Positions 1,870 through 10,352 of a DNA stretch of 32,000 nt are shown here, in pieces (the first letter of the stretch is position 1; every line of letters starts with the position of its first letter). Below the pieces are notes generated by a model. That model saw only the letters and a program-made list of their open reading frames with translations, was not told the DNA's origin and made no database searches. The translations under genes and the position numbers were made by a program. The DNA is taken from positions 2,224,556 through 2,256,555 of the forward strand of contig CP049827.1 in the NCBI GenBank assembly GCA_039725535.1, written 5' to 3'. The DNA comes from Halomonas socia (GTDB lineage Bacteria; Pseudomonadota; Gammaproteobacteria; Pseudomonadales; Halomonadaceae).

Positions 1870-2163
1870 ATGAACATCCGTCCCTTGCACGATCGCGTCG
1901 TAGTCCGTCGCGTCGAAGAAGAACAGAAAACCGCTGGCGGCATCGTGCTCCCGGGCAATGCCCAGGAAAAGCCGACTCGTGGCGAAGTCCTCGCCGTCGG
2001 TAACGGCCGGATTCTCGACAACGGCGAAGTGCGTCCGCTGGACGTCAAGGTCGGCGACACGGTGATCTTCAAGGATGGCTTTGGCGTCGAGAAGCAGAAA
2101 ATCGACGGCGAAGAAGTCCTGATCATGAGCGAGTCCGACATTCTCGCCGTGGTCGAAGGCTAA
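1870..2163 (+). CDS. groES: co-chaperonin GroES
   Basis: 97-aa [17 protein letters not shown]...; AGGAGA SD; immediately upstream of groEL. Confidence 0.97.
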
Positions 2164-2210: not shown

Positions 2211-3864
<1,654 letters not shown>

Positions 3865-4416
3865 GCGACGAGAGTCGCTTAGGTAGCTAGCCTAGCGGGC
3901 TACATCATTGTGGTCACCGACCCTGGAGTCGGTGGCCACACACCCGCAGAAAAAGCAATTTGCTAAACCCGGTATCCGGGGCTTTCTCAAGACCCGGATA
4001 CCGGTCACCTGTAACTAGGGTGTACCGTTCTCGGTGTCTGGGGGAAACCCCGAGTCCTCGCCTCACGGCGACGGATCTATCAATGCTGAAGTTCGGCCAA
4101 ATGGCCGGATGACGTAGCAGAGATTGCCGTGTCTACAAAGCTTGCTGGCACCTAGTGACGCAAGCCTTTCCTGCTATTGTCTCACCTTGGGGTATTTCGG
4201 GGTAACGAGACCTGTTGTTCAGCCAACAGTAGCCTAGGGGTAGTGCATTACTGGCAACGGTGGTGTGCGAAGCTCCCTGACAATGTAGTCCCACCTCGGT
4301 GGACTGTCCGTGCCGCGAGGCACGCCAGTGACTCTGCCAGCAACAGGCGGATGAGACGCTAGGCTGGGTGGTACGACCAACGCAAGTGAACTGCTGATAA
4401 ACACCGTCAACCGCAA

Positions 4417-4441
4417 GGAGCCAAAGTTGCTGACAGGCTTC
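4417..4441 (+). other. candidate EBS2 hairpin of intron domain I
   Basis: Stem GGAGCC/GGCUUC with 13-nt loop AAAGUUGCUGACA. Loop UGCUG (4428-4432) can pair with exon CGGCA (3851-3855, one G-U), 1 nt upstream of IBS1. It lies about 45 nt upstream of the EBS1 hairpin, the expected order. Confidence 0.4.
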
Positions 4442-4463
4442 AACCAAAAGGTGTGTAGCCGGT

Positions 4464-4486
4464 TATGCCCCTTACATCTGGGCATA
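4464..4486 (+). other. candidate EBS1 hairpin of intron domain I
   Basis: Stem UAUGCCC/GGGCAUA with 9-nt loop CUUACAUCU. UACAUC is the perfect complement of the last 6 exon nt GAUGUA before 3863. The hairpin sits on a further 7-bp stem GUAGCCG (4455-4461) / CGGCUAC (4497-4503). Confidence 0.6.
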
Positions 4487-4518
4487 CGCTGACGCACGGC
4501 TACCGGTGGATAGGCAGG

Positions 4519-4526
4519 GTCTAACC
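4519..4526. repeat. 8-bp target-site duplication (left) of IS66 insertion
   Basis: GTCTAACC lies immediately left of the IS left inverted repeat. An identical 8-mer is at 6988-6995. Confidence 0.85.
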
Positions 4527-4609
4527 GTATGCGCCCGGTGAACACACCTTACGCTGAGGCTCCGCGCCGGCGACATTAGGTGTCCACCTATTTTAAGTGG
4601 GCACCTATC

Positions 4610-4975
4610 ATGACGACCCCAAGTACCGAGCGTGAGATTCGCCGCCGGCGGCGCTACACCCGCGAGTTCAAGGCCAGCGTTATCGCCGCCTGTCAGCAAC
4701 CCGATGTTTCGATTGCCCAAGTGGCCCTGGCATATGGGTTGAACACCAACCTCGTCCAGAAGTGGATCCGCCTGGCTAAGAAACAGAGCCACCTGCCGGC
4801 TCCGCCGGATTTCGTGTCGTTGCCTGTACCCACAACAACTCCAGAAAGGCCATCGGCTCAGCCCTCCTCCTCGGACATTACCATTGAGATCCCCAATGCA
4901 CGTGGTGCCATCACCGTTCGCTGGCCGGTCAGCGATGCCGCGCAATGTGTACAGTGGTTGAAGGGGCTGCTGTGA
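4610..4975 (+). CDS. tnpA: IS66-family accessory protein TnpA (HTH, IS3/IS911-type orfA)
   Basis: MTTPSTEREIRRRRRYTREFKASVIAACQQPDVSIAQVALAYGLNTNLVQKWI... ATG at 4610 is chosen over the GTG at 4580. The stop TGA overlaps the tnpB ATG by 1 nt (TGATG). Confidence 0.85.
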   Translation: MTTPSTEREIRRRRRYTREFKASVIAACQQPDVSIAQVALAYGLNTNLVQKWIRLAKKQSHLPAPPDFVSLPVPTTTPERPSAQPSSSDITIEIPNARGAITVRWPVSDAAQCVQWLKGLL

Positions 4976-5310
4976 TGATTCGCATCGATGAGATCTGGCT
5001 GTCCACCGAGCCGTTAGACATGCGCGCCGGTCCCGATACCGCCCTGGCGCGGGTGGTCAAGGTGTTTGGCACCGCCCGACCACACTGTGCCTACCTGTTC
5101 GCCAACCGCCGCGGCAACCGCATGAAGGTACTGATCCACGATGGCTTGGGAGTCTGGCTCTGTGCTCGCCGACTCAATCAAGGCAAGTTCCACTGGGCCG
5201 GCAACTGGCACGGCGACCAGCTGGAACTGTCATCCGAGCAGGTGGCGGCGCTGGTACAGGGCCTGCCCTGGCAACGCATCGGTCCGGCGGGGGCCATTTC
5301 GGTACTGTAA
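4975..5310 (+). CDS. tnpB: IS66-family Orf2 protein TnpB
   Basis: 111-aa MIRIDEIWLSTEPLDMRAGPDTALARVV...FANRRGNRMKVLIHDGLGVWLCARRL, typical IS66 orf2. Translationally coupled to tnpA. Confidence 0.9.
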   Translation: MIRIDEIWLSTEPLDMRAGPDTALARVVKVFGTARPHCAYLFANRRGNRMKVLIHDGLGVWLCARRLNQGKFHWAGNWHGDQLELSSEQVAALVQGLPWQRIGPAGAISVL

Positions 5311-5404
5311 GTCGCGCGGTGAACTTATCGGCACAGAAGGCGAGCCCTGGCCATTCGATAATCTGCGCATCCCTTTGCTGCTGGCGGGCTGGCATAATCA
5401 GAGG

Positions 5405-6955
5405 ATGAAGACGCCGCCTGACTTGTCCCAACTCTCTCCCGATCAGCTCCGCCACCTGGCGGCAACGCTGATGGCGCAGGTGGAGGAAAAGGACCGGGCG
5501 CTGACACAGAGCCAAGAAACGCTACGCCACACCGAGCAGGTCAATCAGAAGCTGACTTATGAATTGGCGCTGCTTAAGCGCCACGCTTTCGGCAAGCGCA
5601 GCGAACAGCTCAACGTCCTGCAGATCAGCCTGCTGGAGGAGATGGTGGATGCCGACATCGCCGCCATCGAGACTGAGCTTGAGGATCTGAAGCTCACCTC
5701 CACTCCGCCGGTGCCCAAGAAGGCCCCCAAGCGCGCCCCCTTGCCTCCCGAGCTGCCGCGCACCGAGGTTCACCATGATCCGGAGAATGATCATTGCACC
5801 TGCGGTTGCCAGCTGCGGCGGATCGGCGAGGAGATCAGCGAAAAGCTCGACTACACGCCAGGCGTGTTCCACGTCGAGCGCCATGTTCGCGGCAAATGGG
5901 TCTGCGACCAGTGTGAGACGCTGATCCAGGCGCCGATGCCGGCCCAGATCATCGACAAGGGCATCCCCACCGCCGGCCTGCTGGCCCAGGTGCTGATCGC
6001 TAAGTATGCCGATCATCTGCCCCTCTATCGCCAAGAGCAGATCTTTGCCCGTGCCGGTGTACCGATTCCGCGCTCCACCTTGGGCGAGTGGGCTGGCATC
6101 TGCGGGGTGCGGCTCCAGCCACTGGTCGATGCGCTGCGTGACCTGTTGCTTGCCGAGCCCGTGCTGCATGCCGACGAGACCCCGGTGCCGATGCTGGCCC
6201 CAGGCAAGAAGAAGACCCACCGTGCCTACCTCTGGGCTTACGCCACGACGCCCTACGCCGGATTGCAGGCGGTGGTCTACGACTTCAGCGAGGGGCGTGG
6301 CGGTCAGCATGCCCGTGACTTCCTCGGTGAGTGGAAGGGCAAGCTGATCTGCGACGACTACAGCGGCTACAAGCAGAGCTTTGCCAAGGGCGTCACCGAG
6401 ATCGGCTGCATGGCTCATGCGCGACGCAAGTTCGTCGACCTACACGTGGCTGCCAAGAGTCAGATTGCCAAACAGGCCATCGAACTGATCGGCCAGCTTT
6501 ACCAGGTGGAGCGCGAGGCCCAGTCACTGAGCGCGGAAGAACGCCAACGACTGAGGGAGACACGGGCGAGGCCCATCGCCGACGCGCTGCACCGCTGGAT
6601 GTTGGCTCACCGCGAGAAAGTGCCAAACGGCTCGGCGACGGCCAAGGCGCTGGACTATAGCTTGAAGCGTTGGGCGACGCTGACGCGCTACCTCGATGAC
6701 GGCGGGTTACCCATCGACAACAACCGGGTGGAAAACCTGATTCGTCCCTGGGCGCTCGGTCGCAGCAACTGGCTGTTTGCCGGCTCGCTGCGCAGCGGCC
6801 AGCGTGCCGCCAACATCATGAGCCTGATCCAATGCGCCAAGCTGAACGGCCATGAGCCCTACGCTTACCTGAAGGATGTGCTCGAACGGCTGCCGACCCA
6901 GAAGGCCAGCCAGCTCCACGAACTCCTGCCCCACAACTGGCAACTCGTCGACTGA
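5405..6955 (+). CDS. tnpC: IS66-family transposase TnpC
   Basis: 516 aa from ATG 5405 (AGAGGA SD). N-terminal coiled-coil, Cys-cluster HCTCGC...CDQC, and the conserved IS66 DDE core (ADETP..., ...CMAHARRKF..., NNRVENLIRPWALGRSNWLF). The upstream part of ORF 5141-6955 overlaps tnpB in another frame and was discarded. Confidence 0.92.
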   Translation: MKTPPDLSQLSPDQLRHLAATLMAQVEEKDRALTQSQETLRHTEQVNQKLTYELALLKRHAFGKRSEQLNVLQISLLEEMVDADIAAIETELEDLKLTSTPPVPKKAPKRAPLPPELPRTEVHHDPENDHCTCGCQLRRIGEEISEKLDYTPGVFHVERHVRGKWVCDQCETLIQAPMPAQIIDKGIPTAGLLAQVLIAKYADHLPLYRQEQIFARAGVPIPRSTLGEWAGICGVRLQPLVDALRDLLLAEPVLHADETPVPMLAPGKKKTHRAYLWAYATTPYAGLQAVVYDFSEGRGGQHARDFLGEWKGKLICDDYSGYKQSFAKGVTEIGCMAHARRKFVDLHVAAKSQIAKQAIELIGQLYQVEREAQSLSAEERQRLRETRARPIADALHRWMLAHREKVPNGSATAKALDYSLKRWATLTRYLDDGGLPIDNNRVENLIRPWALGRSNWLFAGSLRSGQRAANIMSLIQCAKLNGHEPYAYLKDVLERLPTQKASQLHELLPHNWQLVD

Positions 6956-6987
6956 TCATTCACAAAGGGTGATGCCCGTTCGCTTAC

Positions 6988-6995
6988 GTCTAACC
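6988..6995. repeat. 8-bp target-site duplication (right) of IS66 insertion
   Basis: GTCTAACC lies immediately right of the IS right inverted repeat, identical to 4519-4526. Confidence 0.85.
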
Positions 6996-7344
6996 CACTC
7001 ATGTAGAAGGAAAGGAACTCGGTAAGCCCGTATCTCTGCCCTCGGGCAGGCGAGCCGCAAGGCAAGCTGTTGGAGGTGCGGGTAGAGGAGGACAGAAAAA
7101 GCGAATGCCCGTCTGTAATGGACGGGATAGGGGTTCGAACTTTGCCCCGACGCGAAAGCGTGCTGACTTCTGTCTGGTCTCTGATCGCGTGAAGGCGTGT
7201 AAAGCCGCCTGATAAGCACCATCCGCGGTTTGGATGGACAGAACGAATGCCCTTGCGGGGTGAGGCTCACCTTCCCCGCAAGGGGATAGTGCCGTCTTCC
7301 CCCCTCGGGGCATTTTTCGTCAATGCTCAGAGGAGGATAGCAAG

Positions 7345-9000
7345 ATGAGTACTCTTGAAAGCGTACCTGCATTCTCCCACTCGGCATCAAGCTGGCACAC
7401 CATCGATTGGAAGGTCTGCCATCGCCGTGTGAGGAGGCTACAGGTACGGATCGCGAAGGCTGCCCATGACCAGAAGTGGCGCAGGGTCAAATCCCTGCAA
7501 CGCATGCTGGTCCGCTCGTTCTCAGCCAGGGCACTGGCTGTGAAGCGCGTCACCGAGAACCAGGGCAAGAAAACGCCTGGTGTCGATGGGGCATGCTGGG
7601 ACACTCCGGATGACAAGTGGGAAGCGATCTTCCGTTTGCAGCGGAAGGGCTACAAGCCCAGACCGCTTCGCCGGGTCTATATCCCAAAGGCCAACGGTCA
7701 ACGTCGGCCGCTGGGAATCCCGACGATGCTGGATCGCGCCATGCAGGCAATGTACCTGCTTGGGCTCGAACCGGTAGCAGAAACGACGGCGGATCGGAAC
7801 TCCTACGGCTTTCGGCCCATGCGAGCCACCGCGGATGCGATTGAGCAATGCTTCGTCAATCTCAGCCGCAAGCACTCGGCTAAGTGGGTACTCGAAGGCG
7901 ACATCAAGGGGTGCTTCGACAACATCGACCACGAGTGGCTGGTCCGGAATATCCCCATGGATAGGACGGTCCTCCGCAAGTGGCTTAAAGCGGGATACAT
8001 GGAGTCCTCACGGCTCCTTCCGACGACGGCGGGAACACCGCAAGGTGGCATCATCTCGCCGGCATTGGCCAATATGGCGCTTGACGGTTTGGAAGCGGTG
8101 CTCGAATCCCAATTCGGGAAGAAGAACACCAAGGCCAGCTACAAGACCAAGGTCAATTATGTGCGGTACGCGGACGATTTCATCATCACCGGCATCTCCA
8201 AGGAGCTGCTGGAGGAGGACGTGAAACCCATCGTCGAGGCCTTCATGGCCGAGCGTGGGCTCACGCTCTCAGTGGAGAAGTCCGTCGTCACGCACATAGC
8301 GGAGGGATTCGACTTCCTGGGCCAGAATATTCGCAAGTACAGTGACAAGTGCCTCATCAAGCCGAGCCACAAGAACGTGAAGACTTTCTTGGCCAACGTA
8401 AGGAAGCTGTTGAACGCCAACAAGACCATGCCTGCCTGGTGGATCGTGGATCAGCTCAACCCGATGATTCGGGGCTGGACCAACTACCATCGGGGAGTCG
8501 CGGCCAAGGAGACGTTCAACTACGTGGACTACCGCATCTGGAAGATGCTATGGCAATGGTGCAAGAGACGGCACCTGAGCCGGCGCAAGCGCTGGATCAA
8601 GGGGAAGTACTTCCCTCCAGCAGGCAAGCGTCAGTGGGTCTTCCAGGGTGAGTATCCCGGCGGCAAGCGAGCGTATCTGCTCTATGCCAGCGATGTGCCG
8701 ATCAAGCGGCATACCAAGATCAAGGCGGAAGCGAACCCTTACGACCCGGCGTTCGAGACCTATTTCGAGGAACGGCTGGAACGTTCCTGGAAGGAATCGA
8801 CAAAGGGAAGGAAGAAGCTGCAGACGCTCTGGTCCCGGCAAGGCAAGCGCTGCCCGATGTGCCAACAGTTCATCACCTGGGAAACCGGGTGGAACATCCA
8901 CCACGTGGTGGAGAGGCACAAGGGTGGCGGTGACGAGCTGGACAACCTGGTACTGCTGCATCCCAACTGCCACCGTCAGCTGCATCACGGTAGTGGATGA
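7345..9000 (+). CDS. ltrA: group II intron-encoded protein: reverse transcriptase / maturase / HNH endonuclease
   Basis: 551 aa. RT motifs include RPLGIPTMLDR and YADD (VRYADDFIITG). Maturase X motif is MIRGWTNYHRG. C-terminal H-N-H domain is CPMCQQ...HHVVERHKGGGDELDNLVLLHPNCHRQLH. GAGGAGG SD. Located inside domain IV. Confidence 0.95.
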   Translation: MSTLESVPAFSHSASSWHTIDWKVCHRRVRRLQVRIAKAAHDQKWRRVKSLQRMLVRSFSARALAVKRVTENQGKKTPGVDGACWDTPDDKWEAIFRLQRKGYKPRPLRRVYIPKANGQRRPLGIPTMLDRAMQAMYLLGLEPVAETTADRNSYGFRPMRATADAIEQCFVNLSRKHSAKWVLEGDIKGCFDNIDHEWLVRNIPMDRTVLRKWLKAGYMESSRLLPTTAGTPQGGIISPALANMALDGLEAVLESQFGKKNTKASYKTKVNYVRYADDFIITGISKELLEEDVKPIVEAFMAERGLTLSVEKSVVTHIAEGFDFLGQNIRKYSDKCLIKPSHKNVKTFLANVRKLLNANKTMPAWWIVDQLNPMIRGWTNYHRGVAAKETFNYVDYRIWKMLWQWCKRRHLSRRKRWIKGKYFPPAGKRQWVFQGEYPGGKRAYLLYASDVPIKRHTKIKAEANPYDPAFETYFEERLERSWKESTKGRKKLQTLWSRQGKRCPMCQQFITWETGWNIHHVVERHKGGGDELDNLVLLHPNCHRQLHHGSG

Positions 9001-9058
9001 TCGACCAGGGTCAGCACTGCTGCTAGCATGTAACTTCATGTATGCGCAGGAGCTGATC

Positions 9059-9358
9059 ATGGGCGTCACAAAAAGGTGGATGGAGCAGGAAGAGCAAAAA
9101 CTCAACGTCGCCACGGGGATAGCCATACGAGCAGGCGTGCTAGATCGCTGTGAGTTCTGCGATAGTACGGTGTACTCGACCGGCGAAAGCGTTGAGGAAG
9201 CTTATAAAGTCGGTAATACCATGTTCTCAAATGGTGAACTTGATGCGTTCGAGTCTCGCAGAGAGATGACTGATGCCATCAAGGCCACAGTAGAGAGCCC
9301 GGACCATGCCGGCGATTGCTGCTACCACTGCCACGAAAGGATGTTCGGCGACGACTGA
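9059..9358 (+). CDS. hypothetical 99-aa Cys-rich protein (C31xxC34 ... C87C88xxC91), second ORF inside intron domain IV
   Basis: ATG 9059 is preceded by AGGAG (9048-9052) at 6-nt spacing. The stop at 9356-9358 is 2 nt before the 3' strand of the domain IV stem. Sequence: MGVTKRWMEQEEQKLNVATGIAIRAGVLDRCEFCDSTVYSTGESVEEAYKVGNTMFSNGELDAFESRREMTDAIKATVESPDHAGDCCYHCHERMFGDD. I recognise no family. Confidence 0.55.
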   Translation: MGVTKRWMEQEEQKLNVATGIAIRAGVLDRCEFCDSTVYSTGESVEEAYKVGNTMFSNGELDAFESRREMTDAIKATVESPDHAGDCCYHCHERMFGDD

Positions 9359-9403
9359 GCAGATGGCAGTCGGCCTGTACCTTGTACGGGTTTACAGAGG
9401 CTT

Positions 9404-9437
9404 GAGCCGTATGCGGGGAAACTCGCACGTACGGTTC
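9404..9437 (+). ncRNA. group II intron domain V (catalytic hairpin)
   Basis: 34 nt with an AGC triad, 9-bp lower helix, 2-nt AC bulge, 5-bp upper helix and GAAA tetraloop. Confidence 0.92.
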
Positions 9438-9440
9438 TTA

Positions 9441-9475
9441 GGGGGCGGCGGGGCAGAAATGCCCTGCTGCTACCC
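9441..9475 (+). ncRNA. group II intron domain VI with branch-point adenosine (A9472)
   Basis: 15-bp helix (GGGGGCGGCGGGGCA / UGCCCUGCUGCU-A-CCC) capped by GAAA. A single bulged A lies 7 nt from the 3' splice site. The intron ends in AC. Confidence 0.8.
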
Positions 9476-9515
9476 GACAGCCAGCCCCCTGCCCCAGGCA
9501 CTGCCTGAGACAGAC

Positions 9516-9549
9516 CCCGCCGGTGAGAACCGGCGGGTTTTTTTATTTT
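9516..9549 (+). terminator. rho-independent terminator (displaced groESL terminator)
   Basis: Stem CCCGCCGG (9516-9523) / CCGGCGGG (9530-9537), loop TGAGAA, then TTTTTTTATTTT. It lies 37 nt downstream of the intron 3' end. Confidence 0.88.
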
Positions 9550-9581
9550 AGCGCTAAGAGATAAGTAGGAATCTTGTTTCC

Positions 9582-10352
9582 ATGCTCTCCAATATCCGCA
9601 TCGTCCTCGTCCAGACCTTTCATCCCGGCAATATCGGCCAGGCGGCTCGCGCCATGAAGACCATGGGGCTCAGCGACCTGGTGCTGGTGCGGCCGCGCTG
9701 CTACCCAGACCCGGACGCCTCGCGGCTGGCGGCCGGTGCCGAGGACGTGCTCGACGCCGCTCGGGTGGTCGAGACGCTGAGCGAGGCGCTTGCCGACTGC
9801 GTTCAGGTCGTCGGTGCCAGCGCCCGCCTGCGCAGCCTGCCGCTGCCCCACTTTGATGAGCCTGACGCCATGGCCGAGGTGATCGTCGAGCACGCCCGCC
9901 AGTCGCCGGTGGCACTGGTATTCGGCCGCGAGCGCTCGGGGCTGACCAACGACGAGATCCGCCAGTGCAGCCATCAGGTGAGCATTCCGGCCAACCCCGA
10001 CTACGGTATCCTCAACCTTTCCCAGGCGGTGCAGGTGCTGGCCTACGAAGTACACCGCGCCTGGCGCCGGCAGCCGGCCAGCGACTACCGCTATCAGCGC
10101 CCGGCCCAGGCCGAGCCGCCAACCCGTGAGCAGCTAGGTCATTTCCAAGCGCATCTTTCCCGGGTCATGACCAGTAGCGGCTTTCTCACTCAGCCCCACG
10201 CCGCCACCGAGCAGCAGTTGCAGGCGCTGTTCGCCCGCGCTCAACCTTCGCGCCGTGAACTCTCGCTGCTGCGCGGGCTGCTCAGCGCAGTGGAGCAGCA
10301 TATTGCCATTGATTCGCCCGATGACAAGGAAAGGTCACGCAATCGTGACTAG
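9582..10352 (+). CDS. trmJ: tRNA (cytidine/uridine-2'-O)-methyltransferase TrmJ (SpoU/TrmH family)
   Basis: 256 aa. N-terminus MLSNIRIVLVQTFHPGNIGQAARAMKTMGL... and motifs VFGRERSGLTNDE and NLSQAVQVLAYEV closely parallel E. coli TrmJ. Confidence 0.9.
   Translation: MLSNIRIVLVQTFHPGNIGQAARAMKTMGLSDLVLVRPRCYPDPDASRLAAGAEDVLDAARVVETLSEALADCVQVVGASARLRSLPLPHFDEPDAMAEVIVEHARQSPVALVFGRERSGLTNDEIRQCSHQVSIPANPDYGILNLSQAVQVLAYEVHRAWRRQPASDYRYQRPAQAEPPTREQLGHFQAHLSRVMTSSGFLTQPHAATEQQLQALFARAQPSRRELSLLRGLLSAVEQHIAIDSPDDKERSRNRD

Follow-up and report, generated by a model that had tools for sequence, protein, structure and literature searches.

Bacterial group II introns are usually portrayed as minimal selfish retroelements that consist of one ribozyme and one reverse transcriptase. 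The 32,000-nt stretch of the Halomonas socia genome analyzed here (the window) contains a group II intron in the groESL operon whose domain IV holds, 3′ of an intact gene for the reverse transcriptase, a second gene for a 99-residue protein of the bacteriophage lambda Ea8.5 family. The closest described systems are the introns at the groEL stop codon, Avi.groEL of Azotobacter vinelandii and EcKTE56.groEL of Escherichia coli, which form part of a "specialized lineage" within subgroup IIB1 that occupies start and stop codons and whose insertion pattern was described by Gomes et al. 2025 (PMC12584367). Like these introns, the element in the window sits in the stop codon of groEL and changes it from TAA to TAG, begins with GUGCG, has a IIB1-type ribozyme, apparently with extra 5′ sequence before the domain I core, encodes an intron-encoded protein (IEP) of the endonuclease (En, HNH) type and is probably transcribed with the groE operon. 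The available text on the described introns (PMC12584367) assigns to domain IV "its ORF" (the reverse transcriptase), without mention of a second gene or of variability. The interval between the IEP stop codon and domain V, referred to below as the slot, holds different small phage-like genes in related bacteria and, thus, the lineage seems to carry exchangeable passengers, or cargo.

In the window, 403 nt separate the IEP stop (position 9000) from domain V (GAGCCGUAU, beginning at 9404), with the cargo open reading frame (ORF) in between. An earlier note, made from the letters of this DNA alone, had described this gap, a 99-codon ORF with AGGAG at 6-nt spacing, cysteines at positions 31/34 and 87/88/91, and a segment richer in AT than both the IEP and the host genes. 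The gap is borne out by Rfam matches and by the sequence, as are the ORF and its Shine-Dalgarno (SD) motif, and translation places the cysteines at residues 31, 34, 87, 88 and 91. GC content in 300-nt windows is 0.52–0.54 in the cargo segment, compared to 0.55–0.61 in the IEP and 0.61–0.71 in the host genes. The broader proposal, that a second, translatable, Cys-rich and probably zinc-binding gene lies in domain IV 3′ of the reverse transcriptase gene, is supported.

The cargo protein matches PF20735 ("Bacteriophage lambda ea8.5-related domain") with an E-value of 1.2e-10 and 42.4 bits (curated cut-off, 27); the match covers residues 11–93 and profile positions 2–86 of 90, and the family, which the earlier note had not recognized, is therefore lambda Ea8.5. 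In PHROGs, the protein matches phrog_6325, which has no function assigned, and NCBIfam returned just a sub-threshold freyrasin-like match, which was disregarded. Sequence matches in the PDB are Pseudomonas putida PP_3909 (2m7b, E = 1.4e-9) and an ORF from a prophage of enteropathogenic E. coli (2m7a, E = 5e-5), whose nuclear magnetic resonance structures are described as a "hybrid homeodomain/zinc-finger fold" (Kwan et al. 2013, as cited in PMC8614690). Residues C31, C34, C88 and C91 align with C, H, C and C of 2m7b and are the predicted zinc ligands; when 11 homologues are aligned, C31, C88 and C91 do not vary, and Cys or His occupies position 34. An AlphaFold2 model derived from this alignment (mean predicted local distance difference test score 75, predicted template modeling (TM) score 0.65) has helices at residues 4–25, 45–57 and 67–84 and a β-hairpin at 28–40. 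The two best Foldseek matches of this model in the PDB are 2m7b (probability 1.00, TM-score 0.52/0.63) and 2m7a (probability 0.99); the next match has a probability of 0.06, and all others are at 0.13 or below. As the Foldseek E-values are weak (0.03–0.06), the sequence match carries most weight for the fold. By homology, then, the cargo protein is assigned to the lambda Ea8.5 family, with a predicted zinc-stabilized, homeodomain-like fold, and the small zinc-binding fold that had been proposed gains support.

The closest database relatives of the cargo ORF, 61–67% identical in amino-acid sequence, occupy the same position in sister introns. The protein has 329 homologues, and PF20735 is present in 120 of 120 among the matches listed. 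Homologues located directly after the IEP of groEL introns come from Photobacterium leiognathi (loci L001 and L002), Klebsiella pneumoniae (L003), Enterobacter (L084–L086) and two metagenomic assemblies (L087 and L088), and more distant ones are found at 52% identity (L097) and, in Salmonella enterica, at 48% (L094–L096; P0028, more than 900 contigs). This intron context refers to close relatives with retrievable context, and P0015 (77% identical, Tara) and P0023 are left out. Domain V follows the cargo stop codon by 43–46 nt, as located by Rfam in L001, L003, L088, L094 and L097. A purine-rich, SD-like stretch precedes all ten Ea8.5-type cargo ORFs (GGAG or AGGAG in eight, and the weaker GGGG or AAGG in L087 and L040), most sister introns have an SD-like motif ahead of their cargo ORF, and the cargo start of L088 overlaps the IEP stop.

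A codon comparison of six intron-borne copies gave proportions of non-synonymous differences (pN) of 0.10–0.26, compared to synonymous proportions (pS) of 0.56–1.0. In three pairs with unsaturated synonymous divergence (dS), the ratio of non-synonymous to synonymous divergence (dN/dS) is 0.05–0.15 for the cargo and 0.08–0.17 for the IEP of the same loci. By these codon measures, the cargo ORF qualifies as a genuine gene under purifying selection. The earlier note had been prepared to give up the ORF if it proved absent, frameshifted or unconserved in sister introns, or if homologues existed nowhere; it is intact there, its substitutions are biased to synonymous sites, and its homologues are numerous.

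Relatives outside introns, at 41–60% identity, are free-standing genes. The context of the cargo gene itself is a group II intron in the groESL operon, and not the early region of a phage or prophage. In Aeromonas hydrophila (L092/L093, 5001–5282), an Ea8.5-family gene whose product is 60% identical lies in a Mu-like prophage, between mor and an endolysin gene, and in L090/L091 a homologue stands beside a phage integrase and a SocA_Panacea gene. A scan of IMG/VR with the alignment found 10 viral contigs with a homologue and no IEP or domain V within 3 kb. In a neighbor-joining tree, the Mu-like prophage protein (L092/L093) is nested in the intron-borne group, which suggests gene flow between phages and introns for the Ea8.5 genes, with the weak evidence that ∼100 residues afford.

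The ORF in the window is one allele of a lineage-wide cargo slot, a broader finding than the earlier note could see; that note had also missed that the intron belongs to the known groEL stop-codon lineage and that an IS66 element splits this copy. A scan with the window IEP, taking one genome per species, yielded 79 loci, and the IEP stop, domain V and groEL were located in each; 46 of them are introns that directly follow groEL and have an identified domain V. The slot exceeds 200 nt in 38 of these 46 (median 434, maximum 705), measures 133 nt in one, and is 11–70 nt long in the remaining seven, in which the IEP stop abuts a GYYGG hairpin (see below). Among the non-groEL relatives (53–57% IEP identity), the slot is 17–34 nt in three of four, and 260 nt without an ORF in L052. 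The longest sense ORF in 42 long slots has a median of 76 aa and reaches at least 65 aa in 29, compared to a median of 43.5 aa and at least 65 aa in 8 for the antisense strand (Wilcoxon p = 6e-6). Cargo is usually one small sense-strand ORF per slot, occasionally two. Among the more distant IEP relatives, those of L062–L065, from metagenome-assembled genomes of Promethearchaeota or an uncultured archaeon, are 44–45% identical over residues 2–486 and lie on contigs binned as Asgard archaea.

Clustering of the slot ORFs defined the cargo families. DUF2188 is the commonest, with 11 members (Pfam E = 2e-25; phrog_3220, E = 4e-33): L004 5253–5477 in E. coli, L005 5779–6003 in Halomonas salifodinae and nine other loci, with 73–78 aa but longer in L007 and L014 (92 and 142 aa). 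Six cargoes are Ea8.5-like (PF20735). Five, of 77–148 aa, combine a weakly YjcQ-like N-terminus (sub-threshold in Pfam, with a weak match to phrog_3675 at E = 2e-4) with a C-terminal membrane helix, and three belong to DUF1508 (Pfam; phrog_11465). Three Cys-rich cargoes from Photorhabdus/Xenorhabdus and a two-member family of 141–157 aa have no database match; one cargo is NarE-like at a sub-threshold level, and several are singletons, several of these with membrane helices. The slot is, thus, a cargo position across the groEL-intron lineage, occupied by unrelated ORF families, several of which also occur in phages. The E. coli DUF2188 cargo, from two complete genomes that do not include KTE56, matches PADLOC PDC-S16 over its full length (E = 2e-38). 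PDC-S16 is a candidate and not a validated system, and no paper on it was found in the literature searched; eight other cargo representatives had no match in PADLOC, DUF2188 alone being matched.

Some slots and loci deserve separate mention. The NarE-like ORF is that of Photobacterium rosenbergii (L036, 5708–6169), with 153 aa and a match to NarE, an ADP-ribosyltransferase toxin family, at E = 3.9e-5 and 24.4 bits against a threshold of 27. In Marinomonas flavescens (L025, 1–4000), a cargo-carrying intron lies away from groEL, while its closest relative, L024, is at groEL; the ORFs upstream of L025 are RadC-like, ArdC-like (HELTHW motif) and ParE-like (toxin), a mobile-element context. A search of the slots without an ORF found no remnants of the known cargo families, save for a sequence common to L051, L026 and L018 (Alteromonadales-type). 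This conserved stretch reads as a 64-aa ORF in L051, apparently frameshifted in L018, and may represent either cargo in decay or a non-coding element.

Close sister introns differ in their cargo. Identity between the window and L005 is 97.7–99% for the 5′ ribozyme, 97% for the IEP and 100% for domains V–VI, and the two share no similarity from ∼8986, in the last IEP codons, to ∼9389, where L005 has its 74-aa DUF2188 gene. Klebsiella L003 (Ea8.5) and E. coli L004 (DUF2188) differ with identical swap boundaries. Cargo type is patchy on the IEP tree, with differing sister tips at window/L005, L003/L004, L050/L015 and L001/L049/L037. The identities of cargo and IEP are also incongruent within the Ea8.5 type: L001 and L087 are 92% identical in the IEP (dS 0.41) and 82% in the cargo (dS 2.1), L003 and L084 are 93% (dS 0.42) and 76% (dS 1.04), and L003 and L088 are 66% and 78%, with dS saturated for both. 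Cargo dS is 2.5–5 times IEP dS in the same pairs. By these divergence measures, the Ea8.5 cargo has a history different from that of the IEP.

One arrangement in which cargo could be exchanged is found in S. enterica (L094, 3183–9569, and also L095 and L096), where two groEL-type introns follow groEL in tandem. Rfam detects two domain I core matches and two copies of domain V (6337–6413 and 9493–9569) in L094. The upstream intron is intact and carries an Ea8.5-like cargo (6001–6294), while in the downstream intron the reverse transcriptase gene is fragmented and the slot holds an unrelated 82-aa ORF (9206–9454). Such a tandem points to a second invasion of a site already occupied, and would provide two copies between which cargo could be exchanged, for instance by gene conversion. 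Second copies of domain V ∼3 kb from the first were also observed in L034 (8712–8754) and L010 (23–65 and 3384–3426), which may reflect further tandem introns or, in the case of L010 (a contig of 3.4 kb), a wrap-around assembly.

The slot is enclosed by conserved structure of domain IV. Folding with both ends joined by a tetraloop, applied to the window and to L005 (97% identical), pairs 7176–7183 with 9395–9402 in both, and the two introns have GUCUCUG/CAGAGGC, compared to GUCUUUA/UAAAGGC in most groEL introns, a difference of two compensatory pair changes. The GUCUUUA partner strand lies 100–190 nt upstream of the IEP start across groEL introns. The folding and the two compensatory changes together define the basal stem (Table 1). 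The earlier note had correctly placed the cargo ORF within domain IV but had put the 3′ strand of the basal stem at 9361–9368, ∼30 nt short of its actual position; the sole near-complement of that segment, 7229–7236, belongs to a hairpin formed locally, and L005 has not kept the segment. In ∼50 groEL introns, including those without cargo, domain V is preceded by GYYGG, a hairpin and then CUUAUAAAGGCUU/GAGCCG. The hairpin (9372–9392 in the window) varies in sequence among introns with its pairing kept, and is predicted in the window and L005 alike. Since the GYYGG-hairpin element is also present in cargo-less introns, it is an intron component and delimits the slot on its 3′ side.

Table 1. 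Features of the groESL operon, its group II intron and the cargo gene in the window.
Feature	Position	Strand	Basis or remarks
groES (Cpn10), opening the heat-shock operon from which the intron is transcribed	1870..2163	+	97-aa ORF; sister loci
groEL	2223..3863	+	546-aa ORF; stop TAG = TA (3861–3862) plus first intron base G3863
Whole group II intron (subgroup IIB1 "groEL intron")	3863..9478	+	5616 nt including the insertion sequence (IS), ∼3155 nt without it
Candidate exon-binding site 1 (EBS1; UACAUC)	4473..4478	+	Complementary to last 6 nt of 5′ exon (GAUGUA, 3857–3862)
IS66-family insertion sequence in intron domain I	4527..6987	+	2461 bp; comparison with uninterrupted sister L005
Domain IV basal stem, 5′ strand (GUCUCUG)	7177..7183	+	Minimum-free-energy fold, compensatory changes
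IEP, reverse transcriptase-maturase with C-terminal HNH endonuclease domain	7345..9000	+	551 aa, intact
Shine-Dalgarno AGGAG	9048..9052	+	6 nt before cargo ATG
Cargo gene, 99-aa Ea8.5-family protein	9059..9358	+	ATG 9059 to TGA 9358; PF20735
Conserved 3′ element of domain IV: GYYGG (GUCGG here) and hairpin 9372–9392	9367..9392	+	Between ORF stop and stem
Domain IV basal stem, 3′ strand (CAGAGGC)	9395..9401	+	Minimum-free-energy fold, compensatory changes
Domains V and VI and intron 3′ end	9402..9478	+	Rfam RF00029
groESL operon intrinsic terminator	9516..9547	+	9-bp GC-rich stem (9516–9537) plus T run, 3′ of intron

The limits of the intron follow from the Rfam ends, the GTGCGAC 5′ end and the following A9479. 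Insertion is between the second and third bases of the groEL stop codon: the 5′ junction reads ...ATGATGTA/GTGCGAC at 3861–3863, the groEL frame ending in ATGATG TA/G, and the 3′ junction reads ...CCCGAC/A at 9478–9479, where A9479 opens the 3′ exon and splicing restores TAA. Rfam Intron_gpII (RF00029; domains V–VI) matches over its full length with 67 bits (E = 2.7e-11), and group-II-D1D4-7 (RF02012), a core element of domains I–IV, matches 4211–4358, also over its full length, with 114.8 bits; both also match in the sister groEL introns checked. The ∼350 nt from the 5′ splice site to the first Rfam core match may include the 5′-subterminal insertion (subdomain Ia, ∼300–700 nt) that the lineage has at the base of domain I. 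Without the insertion sequence, the 5′ ribozyme part measures ∼1010 nt, compared to ∼1070 nt in EcKTE56. The assignment of EBS1 is a candidate one, based on complementarity and position, and 3901–3906 is a second match. The IEP contains the Pfam domains RVT_N, RVT_1, GIIM and HNH and matches NCBIfam TIGR04416 with 373 bits. It is 66% identical to the IEPs of E. coli, Klebsiella and Photobacterium groEL introns, and 53–57% identical to those of non-groEL relatives. The intron belongs to the groEL stop-codon lineage (IIB1, with a CL1-type IEP).

Upstream, the first gene of the operon encodes Cpn10, which is found in the same place in sister loci. As the intrinsic terminator lies 3′ of the junction between intron and 3′ exon, the whole intron, cargo included, is inside the operon transcription unit. 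A sigma-70-like promoter, considered as a promoter of the cargo's own, was not found in 8700–9600. For the E. coli chromosomal groEL intron, expression by read-through of the groE operon has been reported to give active ribonucleoproteins (RNPs) (PMC12584367).

The copy in the window is interrupted by an IS66-family element flanked by a perfect 8-bp target duplication (GTCTAACC at 4519–4526 and 6988–6995). Its genes, tnpA (4580–4975), tnpB (4945–5310) and tnpC (ending at 6955), have the same orientation as the intron and match HTH_Tnp_1, TnpB_IS66 and DDE_Tnp_IS66 in Pfam. Located ∼50 nt downstream of the candidate EBS1, the insertion is inside domain I. It is absent from the H. salifodinae sister intron L005 and is probably recent, since the IEP and the cargo gene are still intact. 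The GroEL product is unaffected because the intron comes after the groEL stop codon. In Halopseudomonas pachastrellae (L067, 4001–8331), the IEP match is interrupted at residue 435 and continues only ∼2.9 kb on, just before domain V, which looks like another large insertion in a groEL intron, here within the IEP gene.

We consider it probable that the cargo is a passenger gene that can be exchanged, that it is expressed from the groESL transcript and that the intron does not need it for mobility. The structural part of this explanation is nearly certain, while its functional part is uncertain. Apparently lacking its own promoter, the cargo would be transcribed with groESL, as unspliced precursor or excised intron RNA, and would be translated from its own Shine-Dalgarno motif, with coupling to the IEP in some sister introns, as their reading frames overlap. 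It would be dispensable for splicing and retrohoming. The product would act in trans as a small zinc-stabilized binding protein, on nucleic acid or on a host or phage protein, and the intron or the cell that carries it would gain an accessory advantage, the most plausible setting being conflict with phages or mobile elements. Recombination or gene conversion within the conserved flanks would bring about the exchange, with tandem introns at the groEL site as one possible substrate; template switching of the reverse transcriptase between co-resident intron RNAs is the alternative. An accessory, conflict-type role is preferred over a core intron function because the families also occur in phages, turnover is fast, and introns without cargo have intact IEPs.

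Unlikely, although it fits several observations, is an alternative in which the Ea8.5-like protein assists the life cycle of the intron itself, by binding groEL target DNA or intron RNA (in splicing, RNP stability or retrohoming) or by countering host restriction. A homeodomain/zinc-finger fold would suit nucleic-acid binding, the ORF is tightly linked to the IEP with frames that sometimes overlap, the constraint on the cargo is as strong as that on the IEP, and the stop-codon targeting of the lineage is unusual and unexplained. However, sister introns with near-identical ribozyme and IEP have unrelated proteins in the slot (DUF2188, DUF1508 and membrane proteins), the seven groEL introns without a slot keep full-length IEP matches, and in Mu-like prophages, integrase islands and IMG/VR contigs the homologues stand on their own, away from any intron. 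Furthermore, a ΔORF intron without most of the ORF section of domain IV, supplied with a tandem reverse transcriptase, retrohomes like wild type (PMC12584367). The unrelated slot genes, the intact cargo-less introns and this published result also make unlikely the accessory mobility factor that the earlier note had entertained.

High turnover and a patchy distribution would fit a selfish or addictive insert, such as a toxin-like or self-promoting gene or a mini-element in the domain IV loop, kept because it is hard to lose. Some slots hold the NarE-like ORF, which is sub-threshold, or small membrane proteins, and one non-intron homologue adjoins the SocA_Panacea gene, which encodes an antitoxin domain. 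We regard this origin as doubtful: the slot has no room for a partner antitoxin gene, neither terminal repeats nor a recombinase of its own is present (the flanking GYYGG hairpin is the intron's), and the literature searched reports no toxicity for the Ea8.5 family.

It is still less probable that the cargo modulates the co-transcribed heat-shock/chaperonin system, as a GroESL regulator or a client-like factor. The diversity of the cargo families argues against a single chaperonin-related function, the phage homologues are unlinked to chaperonin genes, and L025 carries cargo away from groEL in a mobile-element context, despite the obligate co-transcription with groESL and the site fidelity throughout the lineage, which speak for it. 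Finally, a chance reading frame or decaying remnant, to which the IS66 damage and the ORF-less sister slots might point, is already refuted by the Pfam match above its curated threshold, the SD motif, the conserved zinc ligands and an ORF intact in at least 10 independent introns at the dN/dS given above, and purifying selection likewise excludes the remnant of another insertion considered in the earlier note.

Returning to the exchangeable passenger, we offer tentatively a more far-reaching version, in which the lineage would be a natural site-specific gene-delivery platform that brings passengers from the phage pool of accessory genes into the 3′ end of the near-universal groESL operon, where they would be induced with heat shock or phage infection. 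Its cargoes (Ea8.5-like, DUF2188/PDC-S16 and others) would be phage-interference or host-manipulation factors, reshuffled by recombination or template switching.

Several points weigh against an expressed, exchangeable passenger with an accessory role. Roles of the Ea8.5 family, transcription-factor-like or affecting cell division, are proposals only. PADLOC-DB 2.0 contains no model that matches the Ea8.5 cargo at E ≤ 0.01, and a tblastn search of the cargo ORF against 50,697 phage records (INPHARED) gave no match at E = 1e-3. We infer translation of the cargo from the SD motif and selection only, and the mechanism of exchange is one that we infer throughout. The deletion in the published ΔORF construct (PMC12584367) may not have included the E. 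coli cargo ORF. In about nine of the long slots, every ORF is shorter than 45 aa, which indicates either that cargo decays in some hosts or that the slot is partly non-coding RNA. Lastly, splicing and mobility of the copy in the window are probably disabled by the IS66 element.

A natural lineage with a slot for small, selected and often-exchanged passengers would put group II introns among the accessory-gene platforms, together with moron phages, integrons and defense islands, with a conserved, highly expressed and stress-induced operon as the delivery site. The cargo might explain the persistence of these large introns at an essential gene, and the slot provides a new genomic entry point for working out what the uncharacterized Ea8.5, DUF2188 and DUF1508 families do. 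As an efficient E. coli model of the lineage exists (PMC12584367), the idea is directly testable.

Both the intron lineage and the Ea8.5 family are known; the cargo slot seems undescribed, although specialists may have noticed it. In the literature searched, we found no description of a second, non-reverse-transcriptase gene in groEL or other bacterial group II introns, no link of group II introns to Ea8.5 or DUF2188, and the term "cargo gene" with group II introns for engineered targetrons only. The variants given in a 2015 review of group II introns are ORF-less, LAGLIDADG, twintron and degenerate-IEP only, and Gomes et al. announce a further survey of groEL introns "elsewhere" (PMC12584367).

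The intron in the window differs from the copies in the two complete E. coli genomes (not KTE56) in carrying an Ea8.5-family gene instead of DUF2188, and it is also split by an IS66 element. Its cargo protein resembles other members of the lambda Ea8.5 family in length (∼95–100 aa), in the helix/β-hairpin/helix layout and in the Cys-x2-Cys/His...Cys-x2-Cys zinc site. However, the family is known from early genes that stand alone in lambdoid or Mu-like prophages and in genomic islands, whereas the gene in the window is inside a self-splicing retroelement in a housekeeping operon. In engineered targetrons, foreign genes placed in the domain IV loop are carried to the DNA target by retrohoming, and the natural slot lies in the same domain. 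The cargo of targetrons is engineered and usually takes the place of the IEP ORF, while the cargo described here is natural, is located 3′ of an intact IEP and has been diversified by evolution. LAGLIDADG-encoding group II introns and twintrons show that domain IV or other loops can house sequence other than that of the reverse transcriptase. The LAGLIDADG ORFs, however, replace the reverse transcriptase and are mobility enzymes, and twintrons are introns inside introns; in contrast, the cargo in the window is a small, non-enzymatic-looking protein encoded alongside the reverse transcriptase. By analogy only, the slot also recalls phage morons and integron gene cassettes, in which a fixed platform with a defined slot receives small promoter-less genes that are read from a promoter upstream and turn over rapidly from a shared pool. 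Unlike these, the groEL intron has no integrase or attC-type site, and its platform is an RNA-based retroelement.

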